Assembly (NCBI GenBank): GCA_003645455.1
Contig: QNFE01000001.1
Span: 10,359 to 74,358, forward strand
Origin: Gammaproteobacteria bacterium
Lineage (GTDB): Bacteria > Pseudomonadota > Gammaproteobacteria > QNFE01
Direction of reading: 5' to 3'
DNA: 64,000 bases
Part shown: piece after piece, positions 13,527 through 54,885 of the stretch
How positions within the stretch are numbered: position 1 is the first letter of the stretch
Layout of the letters: each line of letters starts with the position of its first letter
Position numbers and translations under genes: made by a program
The notes under the pieces: generated by a model
Told to the model about the DNA's origin: nothing
What the model saw: only the letters and a program-made list of their open reading frames with translations
The model's database searches: none

Positions 13527-13955
13527 TTAAACCCCGTCAATATAATCATCACTGGAAGATTTTGATAAATCCTCTGCAAGTGCGTCACTTGACCATAGTT
13601 CAAATTTATCACCAATGCCAATAAGAGTCATCTCTCTGGTGAGAATATTTGCCAAAATTCGCAAGGTTTTAGGGACACTAATTCTTCCTTGTGAATCTAT
13701 TTTTGTCTTATGCTTCATGTGCAATATTTTTTTTCTAATCTGCATATTTTTTTCATTTTTTTGAACTTTATCTGCTATTTTTTCCCATACGCTATAAGGA
13801 CAAATATTCAAACAACCATTGTTTCTTAAAAAAATTACAATTTCTCCACTGCTTGAGTTTTTGAGTATTGATCGATCTTTTTTGGGGATGGCAATCCTGT
13901 TCTTTTCATCTAAAAGAATGTCATACATATTGTCAAAATTAAAATTGCTTAGCAT
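13527..13955 (-). CDS. mraZ: Transcriptional regulator MraZ
   Basis: Duplicated MraZ domain signature and first gene of the dcw cluster. The start is probably the internal ATG (MLSNFNF...); the longer ORF runs to 14021. Confidence 0.8.
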   Translation of the reverse strand: MLSNFNFDNMYDILLDEKNRIAIPKKDRSILKNSSSGEIVIFLRNNGCLNICPYSVWEKIADKVQKNEKNMQIRKKILHMKHKTKIDSQGRISVPKTLRILANILTREMTLIGIGDKFELWSSDALAEDLSKSSSDDYIDGV

Positions 13956-14268
13956 AAAAGCACCTTTTTCCACTAAATTCCAAAAAACACCACTATAATG
14001 CAAACAACCCACTAATTTCAATAAAAACTTATAATTAGTTTTTTATTATTGGCAAAAAAATAAATTTATTTATTTTATAATCAATTAGATAGATATGTAA
14101 TTTTAATAAAACACTTAAAATATAAAATTCAACAAAATTTCTACAATAATGACAAAAACTGTCCCTACCATGAATTCAATTAGAATAAAGTGCTTATTAT
14201 TTTCTTAAAAATTAAAACTTGATTTATTAGAAAAATCATATTAAAATATTCGGTTTTGTAAAAATTTT

Positions 14269-15978
14269 ATGTTAACAAATATGTTTCATGGTTTTACCAT
14301 GTCTAATTTAAAAGGTGATATCTACGGTGGCTTGACAGCAGCGGTTGTCGCTTTGCCTTTGGCGCTTGCGATGGGCGTCTCATCAGGTGCAGGACCTGTG
14401 GCAGGGTTATATGGGGCAATTATAGTAGGGTTTTTTGCCGCTATTTTTGGTGGCACTCCCTCACAAATATCAGGTCCGACAGGTCCTATGACGGTTGTGA
14501 TGGCAGCCATATTTACGCAATATACCACAATGTTTGCAGATAAACCAGAATATGGCATTGCGGTGGCATTCACAGTTGTTATTATGGGCGGATTATTACA
14601 AATTCTTTTTGGAGTTTTAAAAGTTGGCAAGTATATAAACCTTATGCCTCATCCTGTCGTCTCGGGTTTTATGAGCGGTATCGGAGTCATTATTATTCTA
14701 TTACAATTAGCCCCATTATTAGGTTCTATGGGGGAATCAGGACCTGTGGGCTCGGCGATGGCAATCCCTGCGGCTTGGGATAATTTAATTCCTCTTGCTT
14801 TGGTTTTAGGTTTGGTATCATTATTGATAGTTTATTTTTTACCAAAATCAATCGGCAAATTTATTCCCTCACCATTATTAGCATTGATTATCGGCACAAT
14901 TGTTTTGTTGGTATATAGTGGTTTTGATATTAATGTAGCAAATGAGGCAGGCAAACAAATTTCAACGATTGATGGGGTGCGTATCTTAGGCGAAATTCCT
15001 ACCGGTTTGCCACAGATTATTATGCCAGTTATTGATTTTTCTTTGTTAGTTATGATGATAAAATCGGCTTTTATTTTAGCATTATTAGGTTCCATTGATT
15101 CTCTTTTAACCTCACTTGTGGCAGACAACATAACCCACACTCATCATAGATCAAATAAAGAATTGATAGGGCAAGGAATAGGTAATACAATTGCCGGATT
15201 TTTCGGTGGGTTGCCAGGGGCAGGGGCAACCATGCGAACTGTTGTTAATGTGCGAGCAGGTGGGCTTACACCTATATCAGGGGCATTACATGCTTTGGTT
15301 TTGTTAAGCATAGTTTTAGGAGCAGGTGCCTTTGCCAAATATATCCCCCATGCAGTGCTGGCGGGAATCCTAATTAAAGTTGGTACAGATATTATTGACT
15401 GGGAATATTTACGTCAAATCCACCTGGTGCCTAAAGCTGGGCTTGTGATGATGTTGGTGGTGTTGGTGGTAACAGTTGCCGTAGATTTAATCACAGCTGT
15501 CGCCTTGGGGATGATTTTGGCAAGTTTTGTATTTATGCAAAGAATGGTAAATTTACAATTGGATGGTATCAATATTTATAAAAATAAACCCGAGCAAGCG
15601 CCTGTAAGTTCTGAGGGCAAAGAAATTATAAAAAAAGCAGGTGGTGATATTTTAATGTTTCATTTGCAAGGCCCGCTTACCTTTGCAGCCGCCCGTGGAA
15701 TGCAAAAAAGATTATCAATAGTGCAAGGGGATTATAGGGTTTTGGTGTTAGATCTAAAAGATGTCAATAATATTGATTTTTCATCAGCCAAAGCTTTAAT
15801 AGAAATGGTGCAGGCTACCAAACATTCAAATGATAAACAAGTTTTAATAGTGGGAACAAATTCACAGGTTTTAAAAATGTTAAAACAACAAAAAATAAAT
15901 AAAATATTAGATAACAACAATTTTTATGCAGACCGGCTTGATGCTTTGCGAACAGCTAAAACCTTAATAACGGAGTAA
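14269..15978 (+). CDS. SulP family inorganic anion transporter with C-terminal STAS domain
   Basis: N-terminal SulP signature (GDIYGGLTAAVVALPLALA), multiple transmembrane segments, and a C-terminal STAS-like region. Confidence 0.8.
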   Translation: MLTNMFHGFTMSNLKGDIYGGLTAAVVALPLALAMGVSSGAGPVAGLYGAIIVGFFAAIFGGTPSQISGPTGPMTVVMAAIFTQYTTMFADKPEYGIAVAFTVVIMGGLLQILFGVLKVGKYINLMPHPVVSGFMSGIGVIIILLQLAPLLGSMGESGPVGSAMAIPAAWDNLIPLALVLGLVSLLIVYFLPKSIGKFIPSPLLALIIGTIVLLVYSGFDINVANEAGKQISTIDGVRILGEIPTGLPQIIMPVIDFSLLVMMIKSAFILALLGSIDSLLTSLVADNITHTHHRSNKELIGQGIGNTIAGFFGGLPGAGATMRTVVNVRAGGLTPISGALHALVLLSIVLGAGAFAKYIPHAVLAGILIKVGTDIIDWEYLRQIHLVPKAGLVMMLVVLVVTVAVDLITAVALGMILASFVFMQRMVNLQLDGINIYKNKPEQAPVSSEGKEIIKKAGGDILMFHLQGPLTFAAARGMQKRLSIVQGDYRVLVLDLKDVNNIDFSSAKALIEMVQATKHSNDKQVLIVGTNSQVLKMLKQQKINKILDNNNFYADRLDALRTAKTLITE

Positions 15979-38863: not shown

Positions 38864-39961
38864 CTAATCATAGTTTTCGTCCAATAGTTTAATTAGAGTT
38901 TTTGCATCTGGTAAAATATTTTTATATTTTTTTGGCAGTTGTGAGCTGGTATTAAATGTAGCAACCCCCATAGCTTTATTAAAATCTCTGAATGCAAATT
39001 CTACGGTTTTATTTTTCTTTTCTTTGCAAAGGATTATACCTATTGATGGGTTTTCGTGTTCTTGTTTTATGTATTCGTCAAGGGCAGAGAGATAAAAATT
39101 CATCTTTCCTAAATATTCTGGTTTGAATTTTCCTGTTTTTAACTCTATGGCTACTAATGCTTGTAAATTACGATTGTAAAACAATAAATCAACAAAATAT
39201 TCTGTATCATCAACTATTATTCTGTATTGGTTGCCAATAAATGCAAAATCAGCCCCAAGTGTTGAGATAAATTTTTTAATATTTTGCACGATTTCATTTT
39301 CTAAAACTCTTTCGTTGTCTTGCTCTTCGTCTGTAAGACTTATAAAATCTAACAAATAATGGTCGTTAAAGTTTTGTAATGATTTTTGTCTTTGTTGGGT
39401 GTCACTTATTGTTTGGTTAAAATTATTTGGCAACATTCCCTGTTTTTCAAATAATTTATTTTTTAGATGCTGTTTTAAAACTCTAACAGTCCAAAACTCG
39501 TCTGTTGATTTTTTGATGTAAAACAACCTCTCGTTGATTTTTTTTGTCTTGGCGATTATCTCGCAGTGAGCGGTAAAACTTAATTTTGTAAAACAATCAA
39601 CTAATAAATTTATATCAATATCTAATTGGTCAGTCAATGACTGGCTAATTGATTTTTTGTTATTTTCGGTAATTTCATCTATAAAATATAAATTCCATTC
39701 TTCATAAAATGCTCTCATATTTTTTAAATTTGAATATGAAAATCCTCTTAAACCACTCAATTCAATTTGTAAATCGTCTGATAGTCTTTTGATGGTTTGA
39801 TTGCCCCATTTTTCAGTTGCAACTTTTTTGGATATTATTTTTCCTACATTAAAATATAAGTTTAATAACTCTTTGTTAGCAACTTTGGCAACTTCATAAC
39901 GACTTTTTATTATTTGTTGCTTTAAATTTTTAAGAATCTTGATATAATTGTCAATAATCAT
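38864..39961 (-). CDS. YhcG/DUF1016 family PDDEXK nuclease
   Basis: N-terminal YhcG-type region (LSGLRGFSYSNLKNMRAFY). C-terminal PD-(D/E)xK core (DLLFYNRNLQALVAIELKTGKFKPEYLGKMNFYLSALDE). Confidence 0.7.
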   Translation of the reverse strand: MIIDNYIKILKNLKQQIIKSRYEVAKVANKELLNLYFNVGKIISKKVATEKWGNQTIKRLSDDLQIELSGLRGFSYSNLKNMRAFYEEWNLYFIDEITENNKKSISQSLTDQLDIDINLLVDCFTKLSFTAHCEIIAKTKKINERLFYIKKSTDEFWTVRVLKQHLKNKLFEKQGMLPNNFNQTISDTQQRQKSLQNFNDHYLLDFISLTDEEQDNERVLENEIVQNIKKFISTLGADFAFIGNQYRIIVDDTEYFVDLLFYNRNLQALVAIELKTGKFKPEYLGKMNFYLSALDEYIKQEHENPSIGIILCKEKKNKTVEFAFRDFNKAMGVATFNTSSQLPKKYKNILPDAKTLIKLLDENYD

Positions 39962-39966
39962 TATGT

Positions 39967-40176
39967 TTATCCCTGTTTTAATTTTATAAAAATATTGACA
40001 CTAACCCTTTGCAACATCTTAAACATGCCATCACCATCAGGACACTTTTCCGCTATGTTGTGACTCTCATGCAAATCCAAAATATAAATTTTATCAAAAC
40101 CTGCTGCCAACCCAATTTTATTAGGAAATTGCAAAGCAAACAAAAAAGGACGAGATATTTTATAAAGTATTTTCAT
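39967..40176 (-). pseudogene. Mosaic gene relic: pyrD 5' end fused to a pyrD internal piece and a piece of the Type IIG RM gene interior
   Basis: The 69 aa ORF reads MKILYKISRPFLFAL (pyrD aa 1-15), then QFPNKIGLAAGFDK (pyrD aa about 48-61), then IYILDLH...CPDGDG...VSVNIFIK (RM enzyme aa about 600-645). At DNA level it is a diverged copy of 38762-38805, then 38620-38664, then 41690-41812. Confidence 0.7.
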
Positions 40177-40217
40177 TTTAAATTTTTATTACACCAAAGT
40201 TTCATAAGAAGGACCTA

Positions 40218-40318
40218 AATAATTCTATAAAATCCGTCACTGCGAGACAAAGCCCTGTCAGTCTCGGATACTACCAAGAGATTGCCGCGGTCGCAAGCTC
40301 GCTGCAATGACGGGTTTT
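40218..40318. repeat. About 100 bp element with terminal inverted repeats (aaatccgtcactgcgag ... ctcgctgcaatgacgggttt), related to the glmU-glmS spacer repeats
   Basis: Shares the 'ccgtcaYtgc...gcgagcttgcga...gcaatctc' core with the 27419-27600 elements. It sits immediately 3' of the RM gene stop. Confidence 0.55.
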
Positions 40319-40319
40319 T

Positions 40320-43300
40320 TTATTTATCCTCAATAATTTTTATTTTATCAATCTGTTGCATTATTTTATTTGTTTCAAAAAGCACATAAATAATTTTTTG
40401 ATAGTGAGTTATGTCTGTGTTTGATAACTCGTAATCTTGGTCTTTGCGAGATTTGAGCCATTTTTGTAAAGGCTGATAACCGCCGATAAAAAAATTCCAA
40501 GCGATAGATGGCACATTATCAAAATATTGATTTTTATTTATCCACACTTTTCCTGTGCCATCTTTTTCTTTGCTTTCTATAAAAGTATGTTTTTCTACTG
40601 TCGCATCTCCATCTCCTTTAAATGGACTTATTATATCCGTTAATTCTATATTTTCCATTAAATGCAACTTGCGAAGTGTTGCACCTTTTTCAATACATTG
40701 CCAAAATGTTTTTTTATCCGCAGGATATGGCACACGAGGGAAATCAATTTTTAAAAACTCTTGGTATTTCTTGCGGTATTTTGGTGAATGCAACACAGCA
40801 TAAATATAATCCAAAATATCAATCGGCGATAGGTAATTTTGAATTTTTTCTGCTTTAAATTCTAATTTTAAATTGTCTGCTATTTTTTCAACAATTTTCA
40901 TATCCAAGTTAGGTTTTCTACTCTTTTCTGTGAACATTCCATCTGATTCTTTGTCTGGGTAAAGATATAACGGACAAACATAATCTCCTCCTTGCATGCC
41001 AGGGCGAGACCAACTTCTAAAATCAATTATATTTGCAGAAACAAAACAAGGTGAAGCATTTTTCTCTACAAAACCTCTTTTAAAAACCAATCCAATATTT
41101 TCAGTTTTTAGAAAATGAGACATAACCTCGCCTCGTGGCATACACAAAAAACCTTTTGATTTTTTGGAATAATAAGTCCATCTATTATCAAATGGACGAT
41201 ATGATATTTTTGTTATTTTTTTAAAATCAACTCCTGTTTTAATTAAATCTTTTTTTGCATATGAAATTTTCCAGTCACGAACATCCTTGCCTAATTTAAA
41301 ATGCTCTCTTGCCTCCTCGTCATCTAATTTTAAAAATTTTTGAATAGTTTTTTTAACCTCATCTGCTGTTTTATGAATAGTAAAGTTATCACGAGCTGTT
41401 ACTATGCCAACAGAATTGATAGGAAATAAATCTGTCAAAACAAAACCTTTATCATATTCGGCTTGGGCTTGGTAATCTTTGGGTTTAAAAAAATAATAGG
41501 GTTCTTGTGGTTTTAATTTTTCAAATTGAATACTTGTCAAATCATTTTCTAATAAAAAACCATATTTTGCTTGGCGTTTTCCGTAGAGATCAAAATGAAA
41601 AACTTTGGCTAATTTATTTGATAAGTTTTTGTTTTTTGCTGACAAGGGGACATGTCCCCTTGCTAAACCATGTCGTTTTTTCTTGATGAAAATATTGATA
41701 CTGACCCCTTGCATAATATCAAATACATTTTGATCTTTTGTGCCATCAGGGCAGACTTCCTTTTTTTTACTGTTGCCGTGTAAATCTATGATATAAATTT
41801 TATCATAGGTTTTTAAGAGATTGTGCCTCATGCCACGAAAGGTGGGGTTATCTAAAAAGCCGTGAGGGTTGATGAAGGCTAAAATTCCTTCGCCATTTTT
41901 TTCTATTAAATTTTGTGAATATTTAATAAACTTTACATAATCATCGTTAAGCCATTTTGAATTTTTTTCTTGTAATTTGCCACCTGTTGGCTCTTTTTTA
42001 TAATCATCTAATAGGTTTTCTATCCATTTGCCTTTGTTTGATGATTCACCGGCATAAGGCGGATTGCCTAAGACAATCATAACAGGGGTGTCTTTTTTAA
42101 CTCTATCGGCGGCACGAGACTCATCAGATAACCATTTGGCTCCAAATAATGACAAACCAGCATATTCGTGTTCTGGCTCTAAACTATTCGTCAAAAATAC
42201 ATTAAAACGATTATTGTTTTTGTCGTCTTTTTGATAACCTGTTGTTTTTAATAACATTTGTAATTTAAGATGACACATAGCATAGGGGGCAAGCAGTAAT
42301 TCAAAGCCGTTTAATCTGGGAATTAAATCTTCATCAACATATTTATGCCAACCGCCGGAGTTCGTGGTTTTTATGATATCGGCGATATATTTTATCACCT
42401 CACATAAAAAAGTGCCTGTGCCGCAGGCAGGGTCTAAGATTTGCACTTTATGAACTTGTTTGGTTGTTTTGGTTTGAGTTTTAGGGTCGTCAAATTTTAT
42501 ATTAACCATGCTTGTGTCACAAATCCCATCGCTTATTTTAAAGTCTTTTTTTAAAACATCATCACAAGCTTTGATGATAAATTTAACAACAGGTTCCGGG
42601 GTATAATAAACTCCACGAGATTTTTTTAATTGGGGGTTATAATTATGCAAAAATGTTTCATAAAAATGAATCATCGGATCTTGTGTGGCAGTTTTTTTGC
42701 CAAAGTCTTGTAGGATATTAGATAAATTAGCATGACGGAAAATATCAACCAAAGCATCAACAATCCAGATAATTTCTGTGTCTAAATTTGCACCGCCAAC
42801 ATATTCAAACAAATGTCGTAAAAATGGATTAGTGCGAGGCATAAGCTCCATTGCCTCATATCTTGAAAATGATTGCGGTGTTTTGTCGTGTAATCTGGCA
42901 GCAAACAAACCATAAGTTATAGTCTGGGAATAAATATCAGCAAAACTTGCCTCATCTAAGTCTTTTATTAGTATTTTTTGAAAACTAGTAAATTGCTCAT
43001 AAAGATTAGTGTTTTTGCAATCATCGCCGCAGGTTAAAGCTTTGTAAATTGCATCTTTTAATGTTTGGGCTTTGAGTGCCATAAGCGAGGCTAATTTTTC
43101 GGCTGTGTTTATTGTTGTGCCGTTATAAGCACAAAAGTTTTTTAAAAGATTTATAAAAGGTGCAAAGTTATCATTGATGGGTTTTATTTTATTGTTGGTT
43201 ATCGTAGCAATTTGAATAGTTTCAAGTTTTTTGATTTTATTGTCATCAGTTTTTTGATAGAATCTAAATTCAATATAATTAGTTGTCATTACATTGTCAA

Positions 43301-43610
43301 GTCGGCTGACATATCGCAATAATTGATTGTTGTTGTCTCCTTTTTCTAAGCCATCTAATAGGTTGTTTTTTAAATCTTTGGCTTCAATATAAGCGGTTGG
43401 AACTTTGTTTTTATTCTGCACTAAAAAATCAGGAGCACCACATTTTTGTTGTTTTGGTTCGTTGGTTATTGTAATATCTTTGATAAGGTTTTCTATAAGA
43501 TTTTTAAAAGCTGGACGATAGCTGTGTTCGGTAGCCTTGCCACTTTGGAAAAGATCTGTTACATTTTTTAAATATTCTTTGATATATGTTATATGCTTAG
43601 GTGGCTTCAT
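40320..43610 (-). CDS. Single-chain restriction-modification enzyme of Type IIG/IIL (MmeI-like) architecture: N-terminal PD-(D/E)xK nuclease, gamma-class N6-adenine methyltransferase, C-terminal target-recognition domain
   Basis: 1096 aa. PD...EAK nuclease motif near aa 60 (GAPDF...YIEAKD). Methyltransferase motifs YYTPEP, DPACGTGTFL (motif I) and GNPPY (motif IV). C-terminal TRD-type signature 'YIYAVLHSPKYRKKYQEFLKIDFPRVP'. No helicase domain, so not Type I, III or ISP. Confidence 0.7.
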   Translation of the reverse strand: MKPPKHITYIKEYLKNVTDLFQSGKATEHSYRPAFKNLIENLIKDITITNEPKQQKCGAPDFLVQNKNKVPTAYIEAKDLKNNLLDGLEKGDNNNQLLRYVSRLDNVMTTNYIEFRFYQKTDDNKIKKLETIQIATITNNKIKPINDNFAPFINLLKNFCAYNGTTINTAEKLASLMALKAQTLKDAIYKALTCGDDCKNTNLYEQFTSFQKILIKDLDEASFADIYSQTITYGLFAARLHDKTPQSFSRYEAMELMPRTNPFLRHLFEYVGGANLDTEIIWIVDALVDIFRHANLSNILQDFGKKTATQDPMIHFYETFLHNYNPQLKKSRGVYYTPEPVVKFIIKACDDVLKKDFKISDGICDTSMVNIKFDDPKTQTKTTKQVHKVQILDPACGTGTFLCEVIKYIADIIKTTNSGGWHKYVDEDLIPRLNGFELLLAPYAMCHLKLQMLLKTTGYQKDDKNNNRFNVFLTNSLEPEHEYAGLSLFGAKWLSDESRAADRVKKDTPVMIVLGNPPYAGESSNKGKWIENLLDDYKKEPTGGKLQEKNSKWLNDDYVKFIKYSQNLIEKNGEGILAFINPHGFLDNPTFRGMRHNLLKTYDKIYIIDLHGNSKKKEVCPDGTKDQNVFDIMQGVSINIFIKKKRHGLARGHVPLSAKNKNLSNKLAKVFHFDLYGKRQAKYGFLLENDLTSIQFEKLKPQEPYYFFKPKDYQAQAEYDKGFVLTDLFPINSVGIVTARDNFTIHKTADEVKKTIQKFLKLDDEEAREHFKLGKDVRDWKISYAKKDLIKTGVDFKKITKISYRPFDNRWTYYSKKSKGFLCMPRGEVMSHFLKTENIGLVFKRGFVEKNASPCFVSANIIDFRSWSRPGMQGGDYVCPLYLYPDKESDGMFTEKSRKPNLDMKIVEKIADNLKLEFKAEKIQNYLSPIDILDYIYAVLHSPKYRKKYQEFLKIDFPRVPYPADKKTFWQCIEKGATLRKLHLMENIELTDIISPFKGDGDATVEKHTFIESKEKDGTGKVWINKNQYFDNVPSIAWNFFIGGYQPLQKWLKSRKDQDYELSNTDITHYQKIIYVLFETNKIMQQIDKIKIIEDK
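41643..41662. repeat. 20 bp perfect palindrome 'caaggggacatgtccccttg' inserted in-frame in the RM gene
   Basis: Encodes ...RH-GLARGHVPLS-AKNK... A GC-rich island in an AT-rich gene. It is a variant of the 22 bp palindrome at 44389 and 50525. Confidence 0.6.
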
Positions 43611-43999
43611 ATTTGCTGTTGTTGTAAGTCTGACACAATTTCGGCAATTTTAATAAAATCGTTATCATTGTGAACCAAGATTAAATCATTTTCAATGGCA
43701 CAACAGGCGATAAGGCAATCTATTGTGGAGCGAATTGTTATACCTTTTTGGCGGCATTTCATATAAATGTTGGCAGAGTTTTCATAACTTTTTAAATTAT
43801 CTTGCAATGAATAAAATTTTTGTTGATTTAGTATGTTTTTTAATTTGTTAAAAAGTGATGTGTTTTTTGCACCCTGTAAAACTTCCATATAAATTACACC
43901 AGTTATTGCAGTTTGTTTTTTTGCATATAATGTTTTTATAAAATCAGTAGAATTATTATTAAATAAATCAATCCAAATAGAAGTATCAATTAAATACAT
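43607..43999 (-). CDS. vapC: PIN-domain toxin (VapC family)
   Basis: N-terminal 'MYLIDTSIWIDLF' PIN signature with conserved acidic residues. 130 aa. Its stop overlaps the RM start codon as ATGA. Confidence 0.75.
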   Translation of the reverse strand: MYLIDTSIWIDLFNNNSTDFIKTLYAKKQTAITGVIYMEVLQGAKNTSLFNKLKNILNQQKFYSLQDNLKSYENSANIYMKCRQKGITIRSTIDCLIACCAIENDLILVHNDNDFIKIAEIVSDLQQQQI

Positions 44000-44012
44000 T
44001 TATGCAAAGGTT

Positions 44013-44267
44013 TTATTTATATTTTGGCAGAGAGCGGGAGCGCATTGCTTTATAATCGTAGCCTTCAAAAAATGGACTTTCTCCATCTAATGATTTTATG
44101 AGCCAATCTAAACCATTGTTTTTGTGATTTTCAATATATTCGTGCAAAGCTTTGTCAATTATCGCTCTTTTGCTTTTAAGTTTGCTTAATTTTAAAGCTT
44201 GTTGCACTATATTTTCATCCAAAACAACATTTGTGCGGTGTAGGGTTGGTAACATTTTAACTCTCAT
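44013..44267 (-). CDS. vapB: VapB-type antitoxin (ribbon-helix-helix, Rv0623-like)
   Basis: 'TNVVLDENIVQQALKLS...KRAIIDKALHEYIE' resembles RHH antitoxins. It lies 13 bp upstream of vapC. Confidence 0.6.
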   Translation of the reverse strand: MRVKMLPTLHRTNVVLDENIVQQALKLSKLKSKRAIIDKALHEYIENHKNNGLDWLIKSLDGESPFFEGYDYKAMRSRSLPKYK

Positions 44268-44388
44268 GTATTGAAAAATGTGTATAATAACATAAATTAT
44301 GTGTATATGTTATTTTTTAATGTTATAAATTCTCATTATATTTTGGATAATATTTATTAAACTGGCAACAACAAACATTTCTGTATTG

Positions 44389-44410
44389 ACAAGGGGGCAT
44401 GCCCCCTTGT
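44389..44410. repeat. 22 bp perfect palindrome 'acaagggggcatgcccccttgt' (intergenic, upstream of vapB)
   Basis: Perfect palindrome centred on GCATGC. An identical 22-mer occurs at 50525-50546. Confidence 0.65.
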
Positions 44411-44543
44411 TAGTTCTTGTGTCCGATTGAAGACATGTATTTTTAACTGCCGAGTTAATATATAACTCAATCATAAAGCATTCTCATCTAATGTTTTATT
44501 TTGCTGTTGCTTGGTTTGATATTTTAAAATAATATATTCCAAA

Positions 44544-44933
44544 TTATCCCATATCAAGTATAATTTTAAAATTTTGTTGTTGCCATAACTGCTTGGCGTA
44601 ACCTTTTTTAAAAGCGATCAGTTTTTCTTTTGCATTACGAGAGTGGGCATAATTAGGAAAGGTGCTGTTGTCAAGTCCTTGTCCATATTTTTGATTCAAA
44701 CGAGAGGAATAATCAAAGTAAGTTAACCAATTTGCAGGTTTTATCATTGTTTCAACGGCTATTATTATATTATCTTTTGTGTCAATTTTTATGTTTTTAT
44801 CGGTTATTTTGTTGGTATTTTGTGTCATTCCACCCAAACAATATTTGTTAAAAACTAATTTAATGCAGTCATCAGCAATTAAAGAATTGTGAAAATTTAA
44901 TAACAATAAAAATATTAGAATTTTTAATTTCAT
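44544..44933 (-). CDS. Hypothetical secreted protein
   Basis: 129 aa with an N-terminal signal peptide. No recognisable motifs. Confidence 0.35.
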   Translation of the reverse strand: MKLKILIFLLLLNFHNSLIADDCIKLVFNKYCLGGMTQNTNKITDKNIKIDTKDNIIIAVETMIKPANWLTYFDYSSRLNQKYGQGLDNSTFPNYAHSRNAKEKLIAFKKGYAKQLWQQQNFKIILDMG

Positions 44934-44964
44934 AGGAACAATTTATGCGAAAAATTTGCTATGT

Positions 44965-46263
44965 TTATTGAGTTATAATCTCAGGACCCATCAAAGCATT
45001 AGGAATAAATGTTGAAATAGCAGGAACATAAGTCACTATTATCAAAAATATAATTAAAATCATCAGCCACGGCAAAGCCGCATGAATTACCTGTTCCATC
45101 GGCATTCCTGTGATGCCCGAGGTTACAAATAGATTCAGCCCCACAGGCGGCGTTATCATCCCTATCTCCATATTAACAACCATAATAATCCCCAGATGAA
45201 TGGGGTCAATACCAAGTTTCATGGCAATAGGGAATAAAATCGGTGCCATAATCAATAAAATTGCCGAAGGCTCCATAAAGTTGCCGGCAATTAGCAGCAA
45301 AATATTAACAATAATTAAAAATCCCCATACTGGCAAACCAAGACCAATAATCATCGTTGCTATTTCGTGCGGAATACGTTCGGTCGTTAAAACATGAGCG
45401 AATAACATTGCATTGGCTATAATAAACATTAACATTATGGAGGTTTTGCCAGCGGAGAGCAGAACATCTGGCACCTGAGTTATTTTGAGGTCTTTGTAAC
45501 CATATACAGCCACCAAAAAAGCATAAACAGCCGAGACTGCGGCGGCCTCTGTGGGAGTAAAAATTCCACCATAAATCCCGCCCATTATGATGACAATTAA
45601 AAATAAACCACCTGATGCTATGGCCGCTGATTTGCCCCATTTCATAAAACCTTGGAATTTTTTACTGGGGATATTAAGTTTTCTTGCCCGAAAATAAATG
45701 GCAACCATTAACATCAAACCTGCAATTAAACCCGGGATAATGCCTGCGAGAAACATTCTGCCAACTGAAACATCGGTCGCTGCGGCATACACCACCATAA
45801 CGATTGATGGCGGAATTAAGATTCCCAACGTTCCTGCATTTGAGATAACACCTGCGGCAAATTTTTGGGGATAACCCTCACGCACCATGCCCGCTATAAC
45901 AATCGAACCTATCGCTACCACTGTGGCAGGAGATGAGCCTGAGACTGCGGCGAATAACATACAGGCCATAACAGATGCCATAGCGAGCCCACCTCGGATA
46001 TGCCCTACGGTATCAACGGCAAAATCTATCATTCTGCGGGCGACACCTCCTGTTGATAAAAAAGCGGAAGCTAATATAAAAAATGGGATTGCCATCAAAG
46101 TATAATGATCGGTTGTGGAGAAAATTTTGCCTGCCAGCGAGGCAAGCGAATCTGTGCCGAAAAATAAAATAGTTAAAGTGCTGGCTAAACCTAATGAGAA
46201 TGAGATCGGCATCCCAATTAACATAAAAGCGAATAACATCACAAATAAAGCGGTTATAACCAT
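44965..46263 (-). CDS. dctM: TRAP transporter large permease subunit
   Basis: 432 aa, about 12 transmembrane segments, DctM family. Last gene of a P-Q-M operon. Confidence 0.85.
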   Translation of the reverse strand: MVITALFVMLFAFMLIGMPISFSLGLASTLTILFFGTDSLASLAGKIFSTTDHYTLMAIPFFILASAFLSTGGVARRMIDFAVDTVGHIRGGLAMASVMACMLFAAVSGSSPATVVAIGSIVIAGMVREGYPQKFAAGVISNAGTLGILIPPSIVMVVYAAATDVSVGRMFLAGIIPGLIAGLMLMVAIYFRARKLNIPSKKFQGFMKWGKSAAIASGGLFLIVIIMGGIYGGIFTPTEAAAVSAVYAFLVAVYGYKDLKITQVPDVLLSAGKTSIMLMFIIANAMLFAHVLTTERIPHEIATMIIGLGLPVWGFLIIVNILLLIAGNFMEPSAILLIMAPILFPIAMKLGIDPIHLGIIMVVNMEIGMITPPVGLNLFVTSGITGMPMEQVIHAALPWLMILIIFLIIVTYVPAISTFIPNALMGPEIITQ

Positions 46264-46267
46264 ATTT

Positions 46268-46813
46268 TTAATCCTTTAATGTATCTAATGCTTCCTTGAC
46301 TTCTGTTGCTACATGCATTGAATATTGATTTTTTTTGTAAATTTGCACCCCAACTTGAATTAAACGAAATAAGATAAGGGCAAAACCTATGGGTAGAATA
46401 ATTTTTAACTTCCATTCGCTGATGGGTAAGTCTTCGGCTTCAATCCCCATCTGATATAGTGTAGAAATATATTGATATGAACCGATAAATAAAATTATAG
46501 CAAATACAGAGCAGAGAGATACTGATAATAAGCCTAAAATCTGTTGAGTTTTTTTTGAAAATTGTTTTGCTAACATATCTATGCCGATATGAGCACCGAT
46601 CTTAACGCAATATGATGCCCCAAATAGAATTAACCAAGCAAATAAAAAAGTAGTAAGTTCCAAAGCCCAGACGGCTCCTGCGTTAAATATATATCGTGAT
46701 ACTACCTGTGAAAATGTTACAAGAGTCATCGCCGCCAATAAAGCGGCGATAAACATCTCTTCAAACTTGTTTAAAAATTTTTCAAACATATCTTTGAGTT
46801 TTACTTGTTGCAA
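46268..46813 (-). CDS. dctQ: TRAP transporter small permease subunit
   Basis: 181 aa with four transmembrane segments, between dctP and dctM. Confidence 0.75.
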   Translation of the reverse strand: MQQVKLKDMFEKFLNKFEEMFIAALLAAMTLVTFSQVVSRYIFNAGAVWALELTTFLFAWLILFGASYCVKIGAHIGIDMLAKQFSKKTQQILGLLSVSLCSVFAIILFIGSYQYISTLYQMGIEAEDLPISEWKLKIILPIGFALILFRLIQVGVQIYKKNQYSMHVATEVKEALDTLKD

Positions 46814-47787
46814 GCAACAGCGGCAGCGATTGAATCTTTGCCAATCTCGCCTTCAAACTTGGTCCATACAGGAGCCATAGCTTGGCGCCACTTATCAAGT
46901 TGTGCCTCAGATAAAGATATAACGGCAGCTTTGCCAGCTTTGGTGATTTTAGCCTTATCAGCATCTGCTTTTTCCAATGCCCAAGCGGTCACTTTCAAGG
47001 TCACTTCTTTTAAGATTTTCTCTAATTCTGTGCGAATATCCGCAGGCAAACCTTTCCAAAATTTAGTGTTGGTGACTACCAGATATTCTAAAACACCATG
47101 ATTTGATTCAGAGATAGTATGTTGAACTTCAAAGAATTTTTTGGTATAAATATTAGACCAAGTGTTTTCTTGTCCGTCAATAACCCCTGTTTGTAAACCA
47201 TTATAAACCTCAGAGAATGACATTTTTTGTGGGTTAGCATCAACTGCTTCAAATTGAGCGGCGAGAACATCAGATGACATAATGCGAAACTTCAAGCCTT
47301 TTGCATCAGCAGGAGTCTTTAAAGGTTTGTTGGCGGATAGTTGTTTCATACCATTTAACCAATAAGCAAGACCTGTAAAACCCTTGTCTTCAATAGCAGT
47401 TAAAAGTTTTGATCCGGTATCGCCACCTGTAAAACATGCCAAAGATTTGGTATCTTTGAATAAAAATGGTAAATCAAATACACCATATTTTTTAGTATAT
47501 TTACCAAATTTTGACAAAGATGGAGCTGCCATTTGCACATCTCCCAAAGCTAAGGCTTTTAAAACTGCTTTGTCATTATAAAGTTGTGAGTTAGGGAACA
47601 CCTCAACTTTAACTTTGCCTTTTAATCTCTCTGAGACTAATTTTTTAAACAACTCAGCCCCTTTGCCTTTTGGTGTATCAGCTGATACAACATGCGAGAA
47701 TTTAATTAAAATCTCTTTGGCTTGCGCGGAAACACTAAGGCTCAAACCTAAGATAAGCAACAACGGAACAATAAATTTTCTGTTCAT
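46801..47787 (-). CDS. dctP: TRAP transporter substrate-binding protein (DctP family)
   Basis: Signal peptide followed by a DctP-type periplasmic binding fold. 328 aa. Confidence 0.85.
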   Translation of the reverse strand: MNRKFIVPLLLILGLSLSVSAQAKEILIKFSHVVSADTPKGKGAELFKKLVSERLKGKVKVEVFPNSQLYNDKAVLKALALGDVQMAAPSLSKFGKYTKKYGVFDLPFLFKDTKSLACFTGGDTGSKLLTAIEDKGFTGLAYWLNGMKQLSANKPLKTPADAKGLKFRIMSSDVLAAQFEAVDANPQKMSFSEVYNGLQTGVIDGQENTWSNIYTKKFFEVQHTISESNHGVLEYLVVTNTKFWKGLPADIRTELEKILKEVTLKVTAWALEKADADKAKITKAGKAAVISLSEAQLDKWRQAMAPVWTKFEGEIGKDSIAAAVACNK

Positions 47788-48050
47788 ATAAAATTACCTT
47801 TAAAAAAATAAAAAAAATACTATTTCATTAAAAAACAGTGAAATAGATGAGTTATTATCAGTATATACAAAATAACATAAATAGCGATTATCTAATAGAT
47901 AAAAATAATTTAGCAATTATTACATAACATTTTTTAAATTGCAAAAAAAAAATGAATAAAAATAAAAAAATAACATATACTATTGCATGATTTATTTGTA
48001 ATGTTCGTTTTACTTTTCTTTTTTTATAATAAAATACAAGGATTGTTGTT

Positions 48051-48434
48051 ATGATAAAAACCGATAAACCAGTTTATTTGGATATGTTACATATCAAATT
48101 GCCCATAGCTGGTATAACCTCCATTTTGCACCGGATAAGTGGTTTGATATTATCACTATCAATGGTTTTATTTGTGGCAATTTTTGCTATTTTAATCTCA
48201 AATCAGAACAATTTTAATTTTATCCAAGAGTCATTATTCCCCAATTTGTTTTTTAAATTGATTTTGGTTGTGTTGTTATGGTCTTTTTTACATCACTTTT
48301 TTGCTGGAATTAGATTTTTATTGTTAGATTTTGATATAGGGATAGACAAAAAAAGTGGAACAATAACTGCCATAATTTTATTTTTGTTAAGTATTTTTTC
48401 ACTTATTTTTTCCGTTTGGTTTTTTATATTATGA
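48051..48434 (+). CDS. sdhC: Succinate dehydrogenase cytochrome b556 subunit
   Basis: 127 aa, three transmembrane segments, first gene of sdhCDAB. Confidence 0.8.
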   Translation: MIKTDKPVYLDMLHIKLPIAGITSILHRISGLILSLSMVLFVAIFAILISNQNNFNFIQESLFPNLFFKLILVVLLWSFLHHFFAGIRFLLLDFDIGIDKKSGTITAIILFLLSIFSLIFSVWFFIL

Positions 48435-48757
48435 TAGCAAGATTAACAGGTTTAAAAGCTTGGGTTCACCAAAGAATAAGTGCGGTTTTTTTAATGCTGG
48501 TTATGCCATATCTAATTTGGCAAATTTGGATAAATATAACAGATTATCAAAGTTTACAAATATTTGTCTCATCAATATTTAATCAGATTTTGTTAGTGAT
48601 AACAGCAATTTTTCTGCTAATCCATAGTTGGGTTGGCTTGCGAGATATTTTGTTGGATTACATTTGGAACGATAAAATATTAACTTTTTTATTGTCTTTT
48701 GTAGCCACAGGTCTGTTGGTTATTTTCATCTGGTTTTTAACTCTTTTATTTTTTTAA
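48416..48757 (+). CDS. sdhD: Succinate dehydrogenase hydrophobic membrane anchor subunit
   Basis: 113 aa, three transmembrane segments, between sdhC and sdhA. Confidence 0.75.
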   Translation: MVFYIMIARLTGLKAWVHQRISAVFLMLVMPYLIWQIWINITDYQSLQIFVSSIFNQILLVITAIFLLIHSWVGLRDILLDYIWNDKILTFLLSFVATGLLVIFIWFLTLLFF

Positions 48758-48760
48758 AAA

Positions 48761-50524
48761 ATGGCAAATTCAACAAAATTAAAAACTCACAAATTTGATG
48801 CGATTATTATCGGTGCCGGAGGAGCGGGTTTAAAAGCCGCTTTGCAAATTGGCAAATCAGGGGCAAAGGTTGCTGTTATCTCAAAAGTATATCCCACTCG
48901 CTCTCATACTGTATCCGCCCAAGGTGGCATAAATGCGGCTTTGGCAAATGTTAGTGAGGATAACTGGCACTGGCATATGTATGACACCATCAAAGGATCA
49001 GACTGGCTCGCCGACCAAGATGCCGTGGAATATATGTGTCAAAAAGCACGCGAGACGGTGATAGACTTAGAACATAACGGTGTGCCATTTTCAAGGCTTG
49101 ATGATGGCAAAATATATCAGCGAAAATTTGGCGGACAAAGCCAGAATTTTGGCAAAACCCAAGCGACACGAACCTGTGCTGCCGCCGACCGGACAGGACA
49201 TGCAATTTTGCATTCTTTATATCAACAAAACATAAGATATAAAACTCACTTTTTTGATGAATATTTTTGCATTGATTTATTAAAAGATAAAACAGGGGCG
49301 ATAGCAGGGGTTATGGTGTTATCAATGGCAACAGGCGAACCTTTGATAATTCAAGCAAAAGCGACAATAATTGCCACAGGAGGTGCAGGGCAAATTTTCA
49401 ACACCACGACAAATGCCACAGTTAATACAGGGGACGGATTAGCCATGGCATTGCGTGCGGATATTGCTTTGGAGGATATGGAATTTTTTCAATTTCATCC
49501 CACCGGTATCGCAGGCAAGGGGATGTTATTATCAGAGGGCGCAAGGGGTGAGGGCGGATATTTATTAAATGGCAAAGGCGAGAGATTTATGGAAAAATAT
49601 GCGCCGAATGTCAAAGATCTCGCCAGCCGTGATGTTGTTAGTCGCTCGATATATTTGGAAGTCAAAGAGGGTAGAGGCTGTGGTAAAAACAAGGATCATG
49701 TTTTGTTGCAGGTTCATCATATAGGAGCAGACAAGGTTAAAAAAAGATTGCCAGCCATCCGTGATTTAGCGTTGAGTTTTACCGGGCTTGATATGGCATA
49801 TGAGGCAATTCCGGTTTATCCGACCGCTCACTACACAATGGGTGGCATTCCTACTAATAAATATGGCGAGGTAGTGGATGACAAGCACCAAAGCATAACA
49901 GGCATATATGCAATCGGCGAGTGTGCTTGTGTTTCAGTCCATGGAGCAAATCGTCTGGGGGGCAACTCATTATTAGATATAGTTGTATTTGGCAAAATAG
50001 CAGGTGAGCATTGTATAGAATTTTTAAAAACAAAACCACAACACAAAAAATTAGACGATAAGATATTACAAAAAATTGAAAAAAGGTTTTGGAGTTGGGA
50101 TAATAATGATGGCATCGAAGATGTGTATCAACTAAAAACCGAATTAAAAGAGACAATGGATAAATATTGTAGTGTTTTTCGCACCCAGAAAATTCTGGAT
50201 GAAGGTGTAGAAGAGGTTAAAAAAATAAGCGAGAGATTTAAAAATGTCAAATTATCTGATAGATCAAAAACTTTTAATATTGCCAGAATTGATATTTTTG
50301 AAACTGAAAATTTAATTCAAAATGCCTTGGCGACAATCATATCTGCCGCCGCACGCCATGAAAGCCGTGGTGCTCACAGTCGCGTAGATTATCCAGAACG
50401 AGATGATAAAAATTGGTTAAAACATAGCCTATTTTATCTCAAAGATTTATCCTTAAAATACAAAGATGTCAATATGAAACCTGTAAGTGTTGATAGTATT
50501 CCACCAAAAAAGAGGGTGTATTAA
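48761..50524 (+). CDS. sdhA: Succinate dehydrogenase flavoprotein subunit
   Basis: FAD-binding N-terminus ([12 protein letters not shown]) and the conserved covalent-flavin histidine context ([10 protein letters not shown]). 587 aa. Confidence 0.92.
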
Positions 50525-50546
50525 ACAAGGGGGCATGCCCCCTTGT
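50525..50546. repeat. 22 bp perfect palindrome 'acaagggggcatgcccccttgt' in the sdhA-sdhB spacer
   Basis: Identical to the 22-mer at 44389-44410. It begins 1 bp after the sdhA stop. Confidence 0.65.
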
Positions 50547-50596
50547 CAATTCGCTGGCTATTTTTTTATTTTTACATAGTTTTTTAGAGAATTAAA

Positions 50597-51310
50597 ATGA
50601 ATGATATAAAATTTTCAATTTACCGCTTTAATCCTGATTTTGATAAAAAACCATATAATCAAGATTACACTCTTAAAAAAGAAATTTTAAAATCTGATAT
50701 GAAATTATTAGATGCTTTGAAAATAATCCAGCAAGAAGACCCCACACTTGCCTATCGTAAATCCTGTGGTGAGGGAGTATGTGGCTCAGATGGGATGAAT
50801 GTCAATGGCACAAATCGTTTGGCTTGCATTACCCCACTATCCGAACTTGGCAACAAAATAAGCCTAAAACCACTGCCTGGATTACCTGTTATTCGTGATT
50901 TAATCATCGATTTAACTCAATTTATGGATAATTATAAAGCCGTCAAACCCTATCTTATCCGAAAAACAAAAGTAGCAAAAACAGAAATTTTACAAACACC
51001 TGCACAAAGAGACAAATTAGACGGACTTTACGAGTGCATATTGTGTGCCTGTTGTAGCACCTCATGTCCTAGTTTTTGGTGGAATCCAGATAAATTCTTA
51101 GGGCCTGCGGCTTTATTACAATCTGCACGATTTATAATGGATTCCCGAGATGAGGCAAAAGATGAGCGATTAAAAGACTTAGACGATGCTTACAAACTAT
51201 TCAGATGCCACACAATAATGAACTGCCAAATCTGCCCCAAAGATCTCAATCCCACGAAAGCCATCAGTGATATCAAAAAAGAGATGTTAAAAAATAATTG
51301 CAATAAATGA
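50597..51310 (+). CDS. sdhB: Succinate dehydrogenase iron-sulfur subunit
   Basis: Three Fe-S cluster cysteine motifs (CGEGVCGSDG, CILCACCSTSC, CHTIMNCQICP). 237 aa. Confidence 0.92.
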   Translation: MNDIKFSIYRFNPDFDKKPYNQDYTLKKEILKSDMKLLDALKIIQQEDPTLAYRKSCGEGVCGSDGMNVNGTNRLACITPLSELGNKISLKPLPGLPVIRDLIIDLTQFMDNYKAVKPYLIRKTKVAKTEILQTPAQRDKLDGLYECILCACCSTSCPSFWWNPDKFLGPAALLQSARFIMDSRDEAKDERLKDLDDAYKLFRCHTIMNCQICPKDLNPTKAISDIKKEMLKNNCNK

Positions 51311-52971: not shown

Positions 52972-54111
52972 ATGAAAAGATCTTTAATTCCATCAATTCA
53001 ACAAGACTTAAAGCAAAAAATGGTTTTGCTTACAGGTCCGAGGCAAGTTGGTAAAACCTATCTATCAAAAGATATTATAGCCGATTATGATTATTTTAAT
53101 TATGACTATGGCGATGACAGGCAAGCTATGGCTGATATGGCTTGGAACAGAAAATCCGCACTTATTATTTTTGATGAACTTCATAAAAAACCTAATTGGA
53201 AAAATTGGTTAAAAGGCATTTATGATGTTGAGGGGATTCCACCTGCTATTTTGGTGACAGGTAGTGTCAGATTAAATACCTATCTTAAAGCATCCGAGTC
53301 TCTCGCCGGTAGATTTTTTCAAATAAGACTGCATCCTCTGGATTTAAAAGAGTTATATCACAAAGATAAAACTATTGATTTGACAAAAACATTTGATAGT
53401 TTGTTGCAATTTGGTGGTTTCCCAGAGCCTTTTTTGAAAAAATCTGTTAAATATTATAATCGCTGGAAGCAGTCGCACTTGGATGTAATTATTCGCCAAG
53501 ATTTAATTCAAATTGAACAGGTTCGCCAAATAACTAAAATTGAAAACCTTATCCAACTTTTACGAACAAGAGTAGGTAGCACAATATCATATCAAAACCT
53601 GTCGCAAGATTTAATGTGCTCTAACAAAACGGTTAAAAACTGGTTAGAGATTTTAGAAAATATGTTTGTTGTTTTTAAGGTTTTGCCCTATAACAAAAAA
53701 ATAAACCGCAGTTTAAAAAAAGCCCCCAAATATTATTTTTATGATACAGGGCAGGTGATGGACGATAAAAATAAAGGTGCAAAATTTGAAAATCTGGTCG
53801 CCTGTGCTTTTAAAAAAGAAATTGACCACCAAAAAGACTGCCAAGGAGAGAATTATAAATTAAATTTTTTACGCACCAAAGATGGCAAAGAGGTTGATTT
53901 TTTAATCTGCCAGGACGACAAACCGATTACAATGATTGAGGCAAAATATAGCGATGATAAAATCCACAAACATTTTGATTATTTTGATAAACAATTACCA
54001 AATATAGAAAAAATTCAACTAATTGCCAAAGACTTAAAACGAGAAAAAACCTATGCAAACAATCTATCAATCACGGATGCAACAAGCTATCTTGCGAGAT
54101 TAAGTTTTTAA
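52972..54111 (+). CDS. AAA-family ATPase with DUF4143 domain
   Basis: Walker A motif (LTGPRQVGKTYL) and a Walker B-like motif (LIIFDELH). 379 aa, AAA_14 plus DUF4143 architecture. Confidence 0.65.
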   Translation: MKRSLIPSIQQDLKQKMVLLTGPRQVGKTYLSKDIIADYDYFNYDYGDDRQAMADMAWNRKSALIIFDELHKKPNWKNWLKGIYDVEGIPPAILVTGSVRLNTYLKASESLAGRFFQIRLHPLDLKELYHKDKTIDLTKTFDSLLQFGGFPEPFLKKSVKYYNRWKQSHLDVIIRQDLIQIEQVRQITKIENLIQLLRTRVGSTISYQNLSQDLMCSNKTVKNWLEILENMFVVFKVLPYNKKINRSLKKAPKYYFYDTGQVMDDKNKGAKFENLVACAFKKEIDHQKDCQGENYKLNFLRTKDGKEVDFLICQDDKPITMIEAKYSDDKIHKHFDYFDKQLPNIEKIQLIAKDLKREKTYANNLSITDATSYLARLSF

Positions 54112-54163
54112 TTATCAATTTTTAACTTTCAACTATAAGCTCTTACAAAACTTTTTATTGTTC

Positions 54164-54604
54164 TTATCGGCTTTTAATTTCATCAATAGCGAGTTTGGTG
54201 AATTTTATTTGTTGCCAAAATTTATTCATAATTTCATCAAACATTATTTTTGTTTGTTCTGGCAGGTAATCATGAACCATTTTGTTTCTAATTGTTCGCA
54301 TTTGAATCCAAGTCTCTGCACTCTCTACAATAGATAATTTTTCCATTGTATTGATTAAATCACGATACGAAAGAGTTGGAGTTGCATTTTTATAAATATC
54401 GTAGGTTTTGAAATATTTTATAAAAATCTCAACACAACGGATAAATCTATCTGCCAAGGCATCATATGGCTCTAACTCATCGTAGGAATAGTCATAATCT
54501 GCTTTATAGGGTTCTAATTTTTTAATTGAAGCCTGCACGAGGTTATATACCCGATTAACCTTATTTTTTGAATCTGTTAGCAAAACTTCAAAATTATCAG
54601 TCAT
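54164..54604 (-). CDS. hepT: HepT-family toxin (nucleotidyltransferase substrate-binding, HI0074-like)
   Basis: Rx4HxY motif (RNKMVHDY). 146 aa. Overlaps the upstream mntA by 4 bp. Confidence 0.65.
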   Translation of the reverse strand: MTDNFEVLLTDSKNKVNRVYNLVQASIKKLEPYKADYDYSYDELEPYDALADRFIRCVEIFIKYFKTYDIYKNATPTLSYRDLINTMEKLSIVESAETWIQMRTIRNKMVHDYLPEQTKIMFDEIMNKFWQQIKFTKLAIDEIKSR

Positions 54605-54885
54605 TTAATTTTTACCAGAGAAAGGGTTTTAACGAATGCTTTTTGTTGGGCTGTCATATTATTTTTATCAAAAATTATTACATCTAATTTAGCCTCTAAG
54701 TCATTATAAAATTGAGTGCTTATCTGGGTTGATAATTTAAACGGATCTTGTTTAGAGTAAATTAAAATATCAATATCTCCGCCTTTTTTATTATCATCCG
54801 CTCTGCTACCAAAAAGATAAACCTCATCATTTATATTTTCTAATGCTTTATTTAAGGCATTTTTTTCATCTTTGTATAATCTCAT
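54601..54885 (-). CDS. mntA: MntA-family minimal nucleotidyltransferase antitoxin
   Basis: GS-x9-13-DxD motif (LFGSRADDNKKGGDIDIL). 94 aa. Confidence 0.65.
   Translation of the reverse strand: MRLYKDEKNALNKALENINDEVYLFGSRADDNKKGGDIDILIYSKQDPFKLSTQISTQFYNDLEAKLDVIIFDKNNMTAQQKAFVKTLSLVKIK

Follow-up and report, generated by a model that had tools for sequence, protein, structure and literature searches.

Short perfect palindromes in a gammaproteobacterial contig as probable REP-like elements linked to a divergent Y1 domain that is often embedded in Type IIG restriction-modification genes

The 64,000-nucleotide stretch of the gammaproteobacterial contig QNFE01000001.1 that was analyzed here (the window in what follows; assembly GCA_003645455.1, positions 10,359 to 74,358) has a guanine-plus-cytosine (GC) content of about 33% and contains three copies of a short perfect palindrome. 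These copies probably represent an element akin to the repetitive extragenic palindromes (REPs), cognate to a divergent clade of Y1 proteins with the IS200/RAYT fold (RAYT, REP-associated tyrosine transposase) whose members are often embedded in Type IIG restriction-modification (RM) genes. The palindrome family is previously undescribed and sits both in intergenic DNA and, in frame, in permissive loops of proteins; literature searches by DNA string and by peptide string returned no relevant paper. An exact 22-mer (ACAAGGGGGCATGCCCCCTTGT) is present twice, at precisely the coordinates reported in the initial annotation of this DNA, and a perfect palindrome of 20 bp (CAAGGGGACATGTCCCCTTG) once, and Pfam agrees with the gene context given there (upstream of vapB, between sdhA and sdhB, and inside an RM gene). 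Copies 1 and 2 have a 27-mer in common (ATTGACAAGGGGGCATGCCCCCTTGTT), which is read from the plus strand at copy 1 and from the minus strand at copy 2, and both therefore have an equal orientation with respect to local transcription. No match was obtained in 100 dinucleotide-preserving shuffles of the window, even with three mismatches tolerated, and a chance origin is expected for none of the three sites.

A species-level scan with the pattern CAAGGGGNCATGNCCCCTTG, in which each bacterial and archaeal species was represented by one genome, revealed at least 115 loci in at least 80 assemblies. The common architecture is 5'-CAAG GGGN CATG N'CCC CTTG-3', in which N and N' are complementary, and it is often lengthened to ACAAG...CTTGT. 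The matches listed come from the Bacteroidota (Bacteroidales, Saprospiraceae, Cytophagales and others), the Chlorobiota, the Ignavibacteriales, KSB1, the Betaproteobacteria, the Gracilibacteria, the Moraniibacteriota, the Spirochaetes and more, with up to five loci per assembly. Among these matches N and N' are complementary in 126 of the 137 copies (G..C in 58, T..A in 44, A..T in 22 and C..G in 2), whereas random expectation for the 596 Gb searched is about nine matches, just a quarter of them with N and N' complementary. A single variant is found in 15 of the 16 assemblies that have two or more of the listed loci (none of 2000 permutations was as extreme), the pattern that is expected of amplification or homogenization within a genome. 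Eighteen copies differ from the consensus by two stem substitutions, and in eight of them the changes are fully compensatory (for instance CAATGGG..CCCATTG and CAAGGGAG..CTCCCTTG), against about 2% by chance. Substitutions that change an amino acid are paired with synonymous compensating ones, as in GAG..GCT and ATG..CCA, and the palindrome is kept by compensatory change even at the cost of an altered amino acid. In the Type IIG RM family described below the reading frame is nearly always AGG GGN CAT GN'C CCC TTG, which encodes (T)RGH[A/V/D]PL(S), the covariation of N and N' therefore setting Ala, Val or Asp. Almost all carriers are metagenome-assembled genomes (MAGs), and one might hence suspect a chance match or an assembly artefact; this explanation is effectively refuted by the result of the shuffles, by the recurrence of the site in independent assemblies and in megabase-scale contigs (1.4 and 2.9 Mb; L016 and L058), and by the coherent reading frames and the covariation.

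All-versus-all clustering of the open reading frames (ORFs) at the 115 loci listed gave one dominant family, present at 25 loci, of Type IIG (Eco57I/MmeI-like) RM fusion proteins with the palindrome inside their genes. All six of the proteins tested from this group contain the domain PF01797 (Y1_Tnp, IS200-like) with scores above the Pfam cut-off. The domain lies between the N-terminal methylase part and the Eco57I part, as an in-frame insertion that ends just short of methylase motif IV (NPPY; GGFDVVIGNPPY). Its order is AWHITTATHNSR...AYNICGDHMHLL (the His-hydrophobic-His, or HUH, motif)...KIKSVSAR, followed by a variable low-complexity loop and then by LWTQKFG...YIxNNRxKHxLP with the catalytic tyrosine; it is thus complete (HUH DHxH, WTQKF, YIxNNRxKH), and the disordered loop between the HUH and Tyr motifs carries one to four palindromes. 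With hidden Markov models (HMMs) built from the aligned segments, a Y1 domain was found at 19 of the 115 listed loci, with the palindrome inside or beside it. A protein search with the domain only, and hence blind to the DNA motif, retrieved 51 relatives, mostly stand-alone proteins of 180-237 amino acids, some of which bear names such as transposase or 'REP element-mobilizing transposase RayT' in their source records. When 35 of these relatives were aligned, the loop had the consensus TRGHAPLS, with Pro and Leu conserved in at least 90%, and D..H.H, WTQK and Y..N..KH were invariant. We have found no description of the Y1-RM fusion architecture in the searchable literature; the survey by Quentin et al. 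(2018) explicitly dropped unusually long proteins (PMC6006769).

The AlphaFold model of a stand-alone Y1 member (pLDDT 82.7, pTM 0.78) has, apart from the chain terminus, just one segment with a pLDDT below 50, and this is the loop encoded by the palindrome. Foldseek returned as the best match in the PDB the structure 4ER8, E. coli TnpA_REP with a REP hairpin, followed by the TnpA proteins of IS608 and ISDra2; the probability was 1.00 for each of 4ER8, 2A6O and 2XMA. The HUH motif, the Tyr helix and the TnpA fold place the domain in the Y1 superfamily (PF01797).

The TnpA proteins of IS608 and ISDra2 and the E. coli TnpA_REP enzyme bind hairpins in single-stranded DNA and cut and rejoin the DNA beside them without producing target duplications. 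By analogy with these enzymes, the Y1 protein would recognize the palindrome as a hairpin extruded in single-stranded DNA, nick beside it by means of its HUH and Tyr motifs, and rejoin the hairpin elsewhere; by acting in this way it would propagate or preserve the element and leave no target duplications. For the genome studied here, this scheme would require the Y1 gene to be located elsewhere, or the window copies to be relics.

At the 14 loci with RM-Y1 genes, 44 of the 45 copies are intragenic, which corresponds to 1.0 copies per kb inside and 0.02 per kb outside the genes (p = 7e-15). Three sites recur: the loop of the Y1 domain, the loop of the PD-ExK domain, and the junction that precedes methylase motif X. 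At this junction most family members retain the palindrome, be it intact, compensated or degenerate, and one member lacks it. One can derive from these data a different explanation, in which the palindromes primarily are functional sites of the RM-Y1 genes (recombination or cassette junctions, or expression-control hairpins) on which the embedded Y1 domain acts, and dispersed copies, those of the window included, are by-products. It accommodates the almost exclusively intragenic position of the copies, their recurrence at the boundary between helical spacer and methylase, in the Y1 loop and in the PD-ExK loop, the persistence of the palindrome before motif X by way of compensated variants, and the tandem coding repeats that include it. 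No rearranged alleles and no cassette exchange were observed, and the palindrome is also found in stand-alone Y1 genes outside RM genes; moreover, its dense intergenic spread in a prophage that lacks Y1 fits a mobile element better. On balance, we regard a primary role within the RM-Y1 genes as quite improbable.

Two truly stand-alone Y1 genes outside RM genes (L160 and L162) have their palindromes confined to the gene. In one of these two genes the palindrome has the variant form CAAGGGAGCATGCTCCCTTG, in which a Gly-to-Glu change is balanced by a synonymous change in an Ala codon. Two further loci, L084 and L045, resemble a REPtron in their layout, since a stand-alone Y1 gene is followed there, after 24-60 bp, by a perfect copy. 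The gene at L084 (2835-3149, minus strand), from a Saprospiraceae MAG, is seemingly interrupted by a stop after the post-HUH helix, and with its perfect palindrome just downstream (2510) this locus may be a decaying REPtron-like unit. Tandem coding repeats of 57 bp (19 amino acids) and 105 bp (35 amino acids) were noticed in the variable loop of RM-Y1 genes (L004:6183-6373, L063:16-149 and L081:2542-2771), and each repeat contains one palindrome.

Mu-like prophages may be saturated with the element. One prophage contig (L169 and L170; IMGVR_UViG_3300022552_000049) contains 20 perfect copies in 18 kb, about one per kb, and a related viral contig of 10.6 kb contains 11. The genes on this prophage include those for an rve/Mu transposase, a MuB-like ATPase, Gam, Mu F, a terminase and a baseplate protein. 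Most of these genes are separated by copies of the palindrome, which are frequently paired at distances of 53-117 bp; it also recurs as in-frame tandem repeats of 33-36 bp within the genes for the transposase, the MuF-like protein and the terminase. The prophage contig carries no Y1 gene, and no relatives of the Y1 clade were found in viral contigs.

We also considered a bolder proposal, in which RM-Y1 domain and palindrome form one functional unit: a Type IIG RM enzyme would possess its own HUH single-strand DNA recombinase, housed beside the NPPY motif as in an intein-like 'safe harbour' and acting on hairpins that are seeded through its own gene and subsequently through host and phage DNA. 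Such a unit could be the motor of phase variation in the RM gene and of an exchange of its domains or cassettes, or the addictive RM gene would be ridden as a cross-phylum vehicle by a minimal selfish hairpin; the window copies would then be footprints of this process. This proposal is speculative, and we think it unlikely to be correct.

When compared with known systems, the family shares with REP/REPIN-RAYT systems the short, G/C-rich palindromes that are repeated within a genome and linked to a Y1 HUH protein, the fold of which is nearest to that of 4ER8. A cognate Y1 gene can be assigned to the family (19 of the 115 listed loci and 35 independent homologues) but not to the window. The published precedent comes near without being identical: REPs are on record within RAYT genes and within further ORFs (PMC6006769; PMC3733652), the latter having been described by Di Nocera et al. 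(2013; PMC3733652). However, the described REPs and RAYTs are lineage-specific, whereas essentially one 20-mer is common to many phyla in the present case, and the enzyme, unlike RAYTs, is frequently embedded as a domain within a Type IIG RM protein. With respect to the REPIN doublet organization, the window copies are single perfect palindromes, whereas prophage copies are, as outlined above, often paired; the perfect palindrome may itself be a collapsed doublet. RAYT subclass 2.4 of Quentin et al. (2018; group 4 of Bertels) has a YIxNNP Tyr motif and is found in Bacteroidetes, Cyanobacteria and scattered other phyla (PMC6006769). The Y1 proteins studied here differ from this subclass in the HUH motif (DH[MVL]H instead of NH[IFV]H), in the Tyr motif (YIxNNRxKH) and in the position of the loop encoded by the palindrome, which follows helix C instead of lying between beta3 and helix C.

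Similarity to the IS200/IS605 elements (TnpA Y1; IS608 and ISDra2) resides in the catalytic fold and motifs, in the putative recognition of a hairpin and in the lack of target-site duplication. However, the whole gene is not the repeated unit in the present family, and the stand-alone Y1 genes of L160 and L162 are not flanked, over a distance of 6 kb, by palindromes that might correspond to IS200/IS605 hairpin ends. Rickettsia palindromic elements (RPEs) measure 100-150 bp and are known only from Rickettsia. Intragenic REPs and RPEs resemble the family as in-frame palindromic repeats at permissive loops of functional genes (PMC3733652), the hosts here being the RM loop, a terminase, a Mu transposase and others. 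The present unit differs from RPEs in its size (20-27 bp) and in its one dominant reading frame (RGHxPL). It also does not conform to a miniature inverted-repeat transposable element, as the unit of 20-27 bp has no internal sequence and is not accompanied by offset-specific direct repeats in 131 copies.

Several observations weigh against our interpretation of the window copies as REP-like elements. The tetranucleotide tag at the hairpin foot of described REPs is GT[AG]G or CGTC (PMC3733652, PMC6006769), whereas the foot is CAAG/CTTG in all copies of the present family. The NCBIfam model REP_Tyr_transpos (NF047646) gave 38.6-48.5 bits for four of the proteins (P0001, P0011, P0017 and P0043), below its cut-off of 80, and the IS200 model (NF033573) gave 23-30 bits against a cut-off of 55. 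The family thus lies outside two formal definitions of REP/RAYT membership, those of the foot tag and of the curated-model score. There are three copies only in the window, all within 9 kb, so that a REP-like abundance is not evident in this genome. The custom HMMs produced nothing but noise (E > 0.9) for a Y1 gene in the 64-kb window and nothing at all in the adjacent 8.7 kb. Where a genome has RM-Y1 genes, its copies cluster within the gene instead of being dispersed, which a gene-internal function could explain as well as transposition. The compensatory changes could be mechanical, arising by template switching in quasipalindromes, rather than by selection. Close relatives that might serve as empty-site comparators were not found, since a metagenome scan with SdhC reached at most 46% identity and the best SdhB was 78% identical. 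Finally, no signal of a target-site duplication, in the form of direct repeats at offsets 12-30, was detected in 131 copies, and no other insertion signature was found; the missing duplication fits the cut-and-rejoin mode of TnpA-type enzymes. A 21-bp unit with a 3-5-bp repeat, glimpsed in L067 and in the window, was dismissed as not general in view of the same 131 copies.

The initial annotation had offered a REP-like or mobile palindrome as one of several options and had suggested a search for RAYT- or IS200-like transposases. Comparative evidence supports this option and the RAYT lead, the family being repeated within many genomes, located in frame in unrelated genes and physically tied to a Y1 domain at 19 of the listed loci; in the genome itself, the search of the roughly 73 kb that were read revealed no Y1 gene. 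The coordinates of the window features and of the principal loci elsewhere are compiled in Table 1.

Table 1. Palindrome copies, adjacent genes of the window, and loci of other genomes mentioned in the text.
Feature	Location	Strand	Description
Copy 1	44385..44411	+	27-nt unit ATTG-ACAAGGGGGCATGCCCCCTTGT-T around the 22-bp perfect palindrome 44389-44410; intergenic
Copy 2	50524..50550	-	27-nt unit, inverted relative to copy 1; 22-mer at 50525-50546
Copy 3	41643..41662	-	A..T variant CAAGGGGACATGTCCCCTTG; in frame in RM gene
Type ISP restriction-modification gene, 1096 aa	40320..43610	-	Pfam: N6_Mtase 310-586, Eco57I 447-612, Type_ISP_C 727-1085
vapBC toxin-antitoxin pair	43607..44267	-	Pfam; VapC PIN 43607-43999, VapB 44013-44267; downstream of copy 1
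ORF on the far side of copy 1 (129 aa)	44544-44933	-	Copy 1 sits between this ORF and vapB
sdhA-sdhB intercistronic spacer, 72 nt	50525..50596	+	Palindrome plus 50 nt of AT-rich sequence
Type IIG RM-Y1 proteins	L080:391-4284(-), L020:1646-5332(+), L081:384-4058(+), L009:187-3948(-), L019:4296-7694(+), L066:3007-6468(-), others
Mu-like prophage contig	L166		Likewise palindrome-saturated

Copy 1 lies 122 bp upstream of vapB, at the minus-strand side of an island composed of vapBC, the Type ISP RM gene and a YhcG-type nuclease gene. The 27-nt unit of copy 2 begins on the last base of the sdhA stop codon, so that the 22-mer follows directly after the stop, and the independent assembly L117 (Logan SRR6478866) has an identical copy between sdhA and sdhB. 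Within the Type ISP RM gene, copy 3 follows the part for the methylase domain and precedes that for the C-terminal specificity domain; its codons, AGG GGA CAT GTC CCC TTG, specify RGHVPL within the peptide GLARGHVPLSAK, and the protein itself has no Y1 domain.

Two of these sites can be compared with relatives in which the palindrome is not present. The window RM protein was searched against 1.84 billion representative proteins, and a motif of the RGHxPL type was found in none of the best 150 homologues, which are 38-56% identical to it. The segment RHGLARGHVPLSAKN of the window protein constitutes an extra 12-14 amino acids at a position where most homologues have a short loop. The closest available relative is L163, at 78% SdhB identity; in it the TAG that ends sdhA is followed at once by the ATG of sdhB, and the 72-nt spacer, with the palindrome at its head, is thus missing in its entirety. 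Copies 1 and 2, being identical over 27 nt, look like recent duplicates, whereas a separate event, perhaps an import together with the gene, seems to account for the A..T copy in the RM loop.

The same features can be read as the remains of a foreign element. According to this explanation, the window copies would be inactive relics that were horizontally imported with foreign DNA, for example with the vapBC/Type ISP RM island, from a genome with an active element, and no mover would exist in the present host. All three copies lie within 9 kb around the defence island, none being present in the other roughly 64 kb read; a Y1 gene was not seen in the roughly 73 kb examined; and the window combines two variants, with G..C in two copies and A..T in one, in contrast to the uniformity of 15 of 16 other listed genomes. 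However, copy 2 is located in the core operon sdhCDAB, outside the island, the identity of copies 1 and 2 over 27 nt suggests a recent duplication within the genome, and the part of the genome examined amounts to about 73 kb. We therefore view a relic status as possible, although unlikely.

RNA folding predicts the same hairpin for copies 1 and 2, with a stem of 9 bp and a loop of 4 nt. The statement in the initial annotation that these sites lack a T-tract and are not classic intrinsic terminators was essentially right. On the transcribed strand, no U-tract directly adjoins the stem of either copy; the T-run downstream of copy 2 begins about 17 nt past the stem, and copy 1 has no T-run on the minus strand, which is the transcribed one, a scan with the terminator consensus matching on the plus strand only, where no gene is called in the interval. 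At the gathering threshold, Rfam had no match in the window. One may nevertheless suppose that the palindromes are host-evolved RNA hairpins (an mRNA stabilizer, an attenuator or a terminator) that arose locally to regulate sdh and vapBC. The stable hairpin predicted in both transcripts and the position of copy 2 exactly between two cistrons would agree with this. We nevertheless rate a local regulatory origin as very unlikely, given the identical sequence in unrelated contexts, in different phyla and in coding regions, and given the lack of both an adjacent U-tract and an Rfam match. A regulatory effect may instead be a consequence of the insertion.

Intercistronic REPs of E. coli, such as that between malE and malF, stabilize the upstream mRNA. 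Copy 2 resembles them, by analogy only, in placing a stable hairpin between two cistrons of one operon. In the sdhCDAB mRNA, the predicted and very stable G/C hairpin of 9 bp right after sdhA would break the translational coupling between sdhA and sdhB, and it could shield the upstream mRNA in the manner of the E. coli REPs. An altered coupling of sdhA and sdhB expression is predicted for this genome. The interval 50522-50599 of the window contains the AT-rich 72-nt spacer with promoter-like hexamers where the relative L163 (7990-8005) has TAGATG, and sdhB may therefore be uncoupled from sdhA translationally, and perhaps transcriptionally. TTGACA-like hexamers formed by flank and palindrome were judged uninformative in this AT-rich DNA, in which 32 were expected and 43 counted.

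The perfect dyad symmetry of copy 1, at its distance of 122 bp from vapB on the upstream side, might also suggest an operator for a dimeric DNA-binding regulator, for example VapB or an RM controller protein, and a protein-binding site was among the options initially put forward. This option conflicts with the contexts observed across genomes. The same site is found after sdhA and inside genes, and dozens of genomes contain it without a shared regulator nearby, the clustering of neighbouring proteins having yielded the RM/Y1 family only; an operator function is accordingly extremely unlikely. Other neighbour families that are shared between loci (Y_Y_Y sensors, ABC ATPases) were set aside as large, unrelated families at variable distances.

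Should the link between palindrome and Y1 domain be functional, the two would provide a tractable minimal pair of substrate and enzyme for HUH biochemistry, account for the recurrent 'TRGHxPLS' peptide in otherwise unrelated proteins, and possibly represent a selfish hairpin that hitch-hikes on addictive RM genes. With a hairpin that is nearly identical from phylum to phylum and a Y1 domain housed in RM proteins, the family is relevant to researchers concerned with mobile elements and with restriction-modification. For annotation, it should be noted that such palindromes within coding sequences are to be treated as insertions and not as protein motifs.

In Betaproteobacteria MAGs with a GC content of 57-64% (L015:~3590-3700, L048, L054, L087, L089, L096 and L097), a composite repeat some 100 nt long ends, on its 3' side, with the palindrome. 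This repeat is conserved, has a GGGAAGC...GCTTCCC stem and runs ...tctgaagtgggggatata[palindrome]ttcagtgaatccctag; it occurs in tandem in L087, and an Rfam scan by E-value of eight betaproteobacterial loci gave nothing relevant.

A scan of all perfect hairpins with a stem of at least 8 bp found no further family member in the window, which gives three copies (two of them extragenic) for the 64 kb, with none in the adjacent 8.7 kb. The sole other G/C-rich perfect hairpin of the window, ATCGCCGCC-aataaag-GGCGGCGAT at 46728-46750 within the dctQ ORF (46268-46813), is unrelated to the family in sequence. Defence and addiction genes are clustered at 38864-44267 and 52972-54885; they encode a YhcG/DUF1016 PDDEXK nuclease, the Type ISP RM protein, VapBC, an AAA_14/DUF4143 ATPase and a nucleotidyltransferase pair (NTase_sub_bind plus Polbeta), and a GmrSD-like gene follows about 1.4 kb beyond the end of the window (L165:13176-14936). 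The cumulative GC skew has its minimum, with a change of sign, at about 13000-15000 of the window, a position that may be a replication origin or a strand-switch point.

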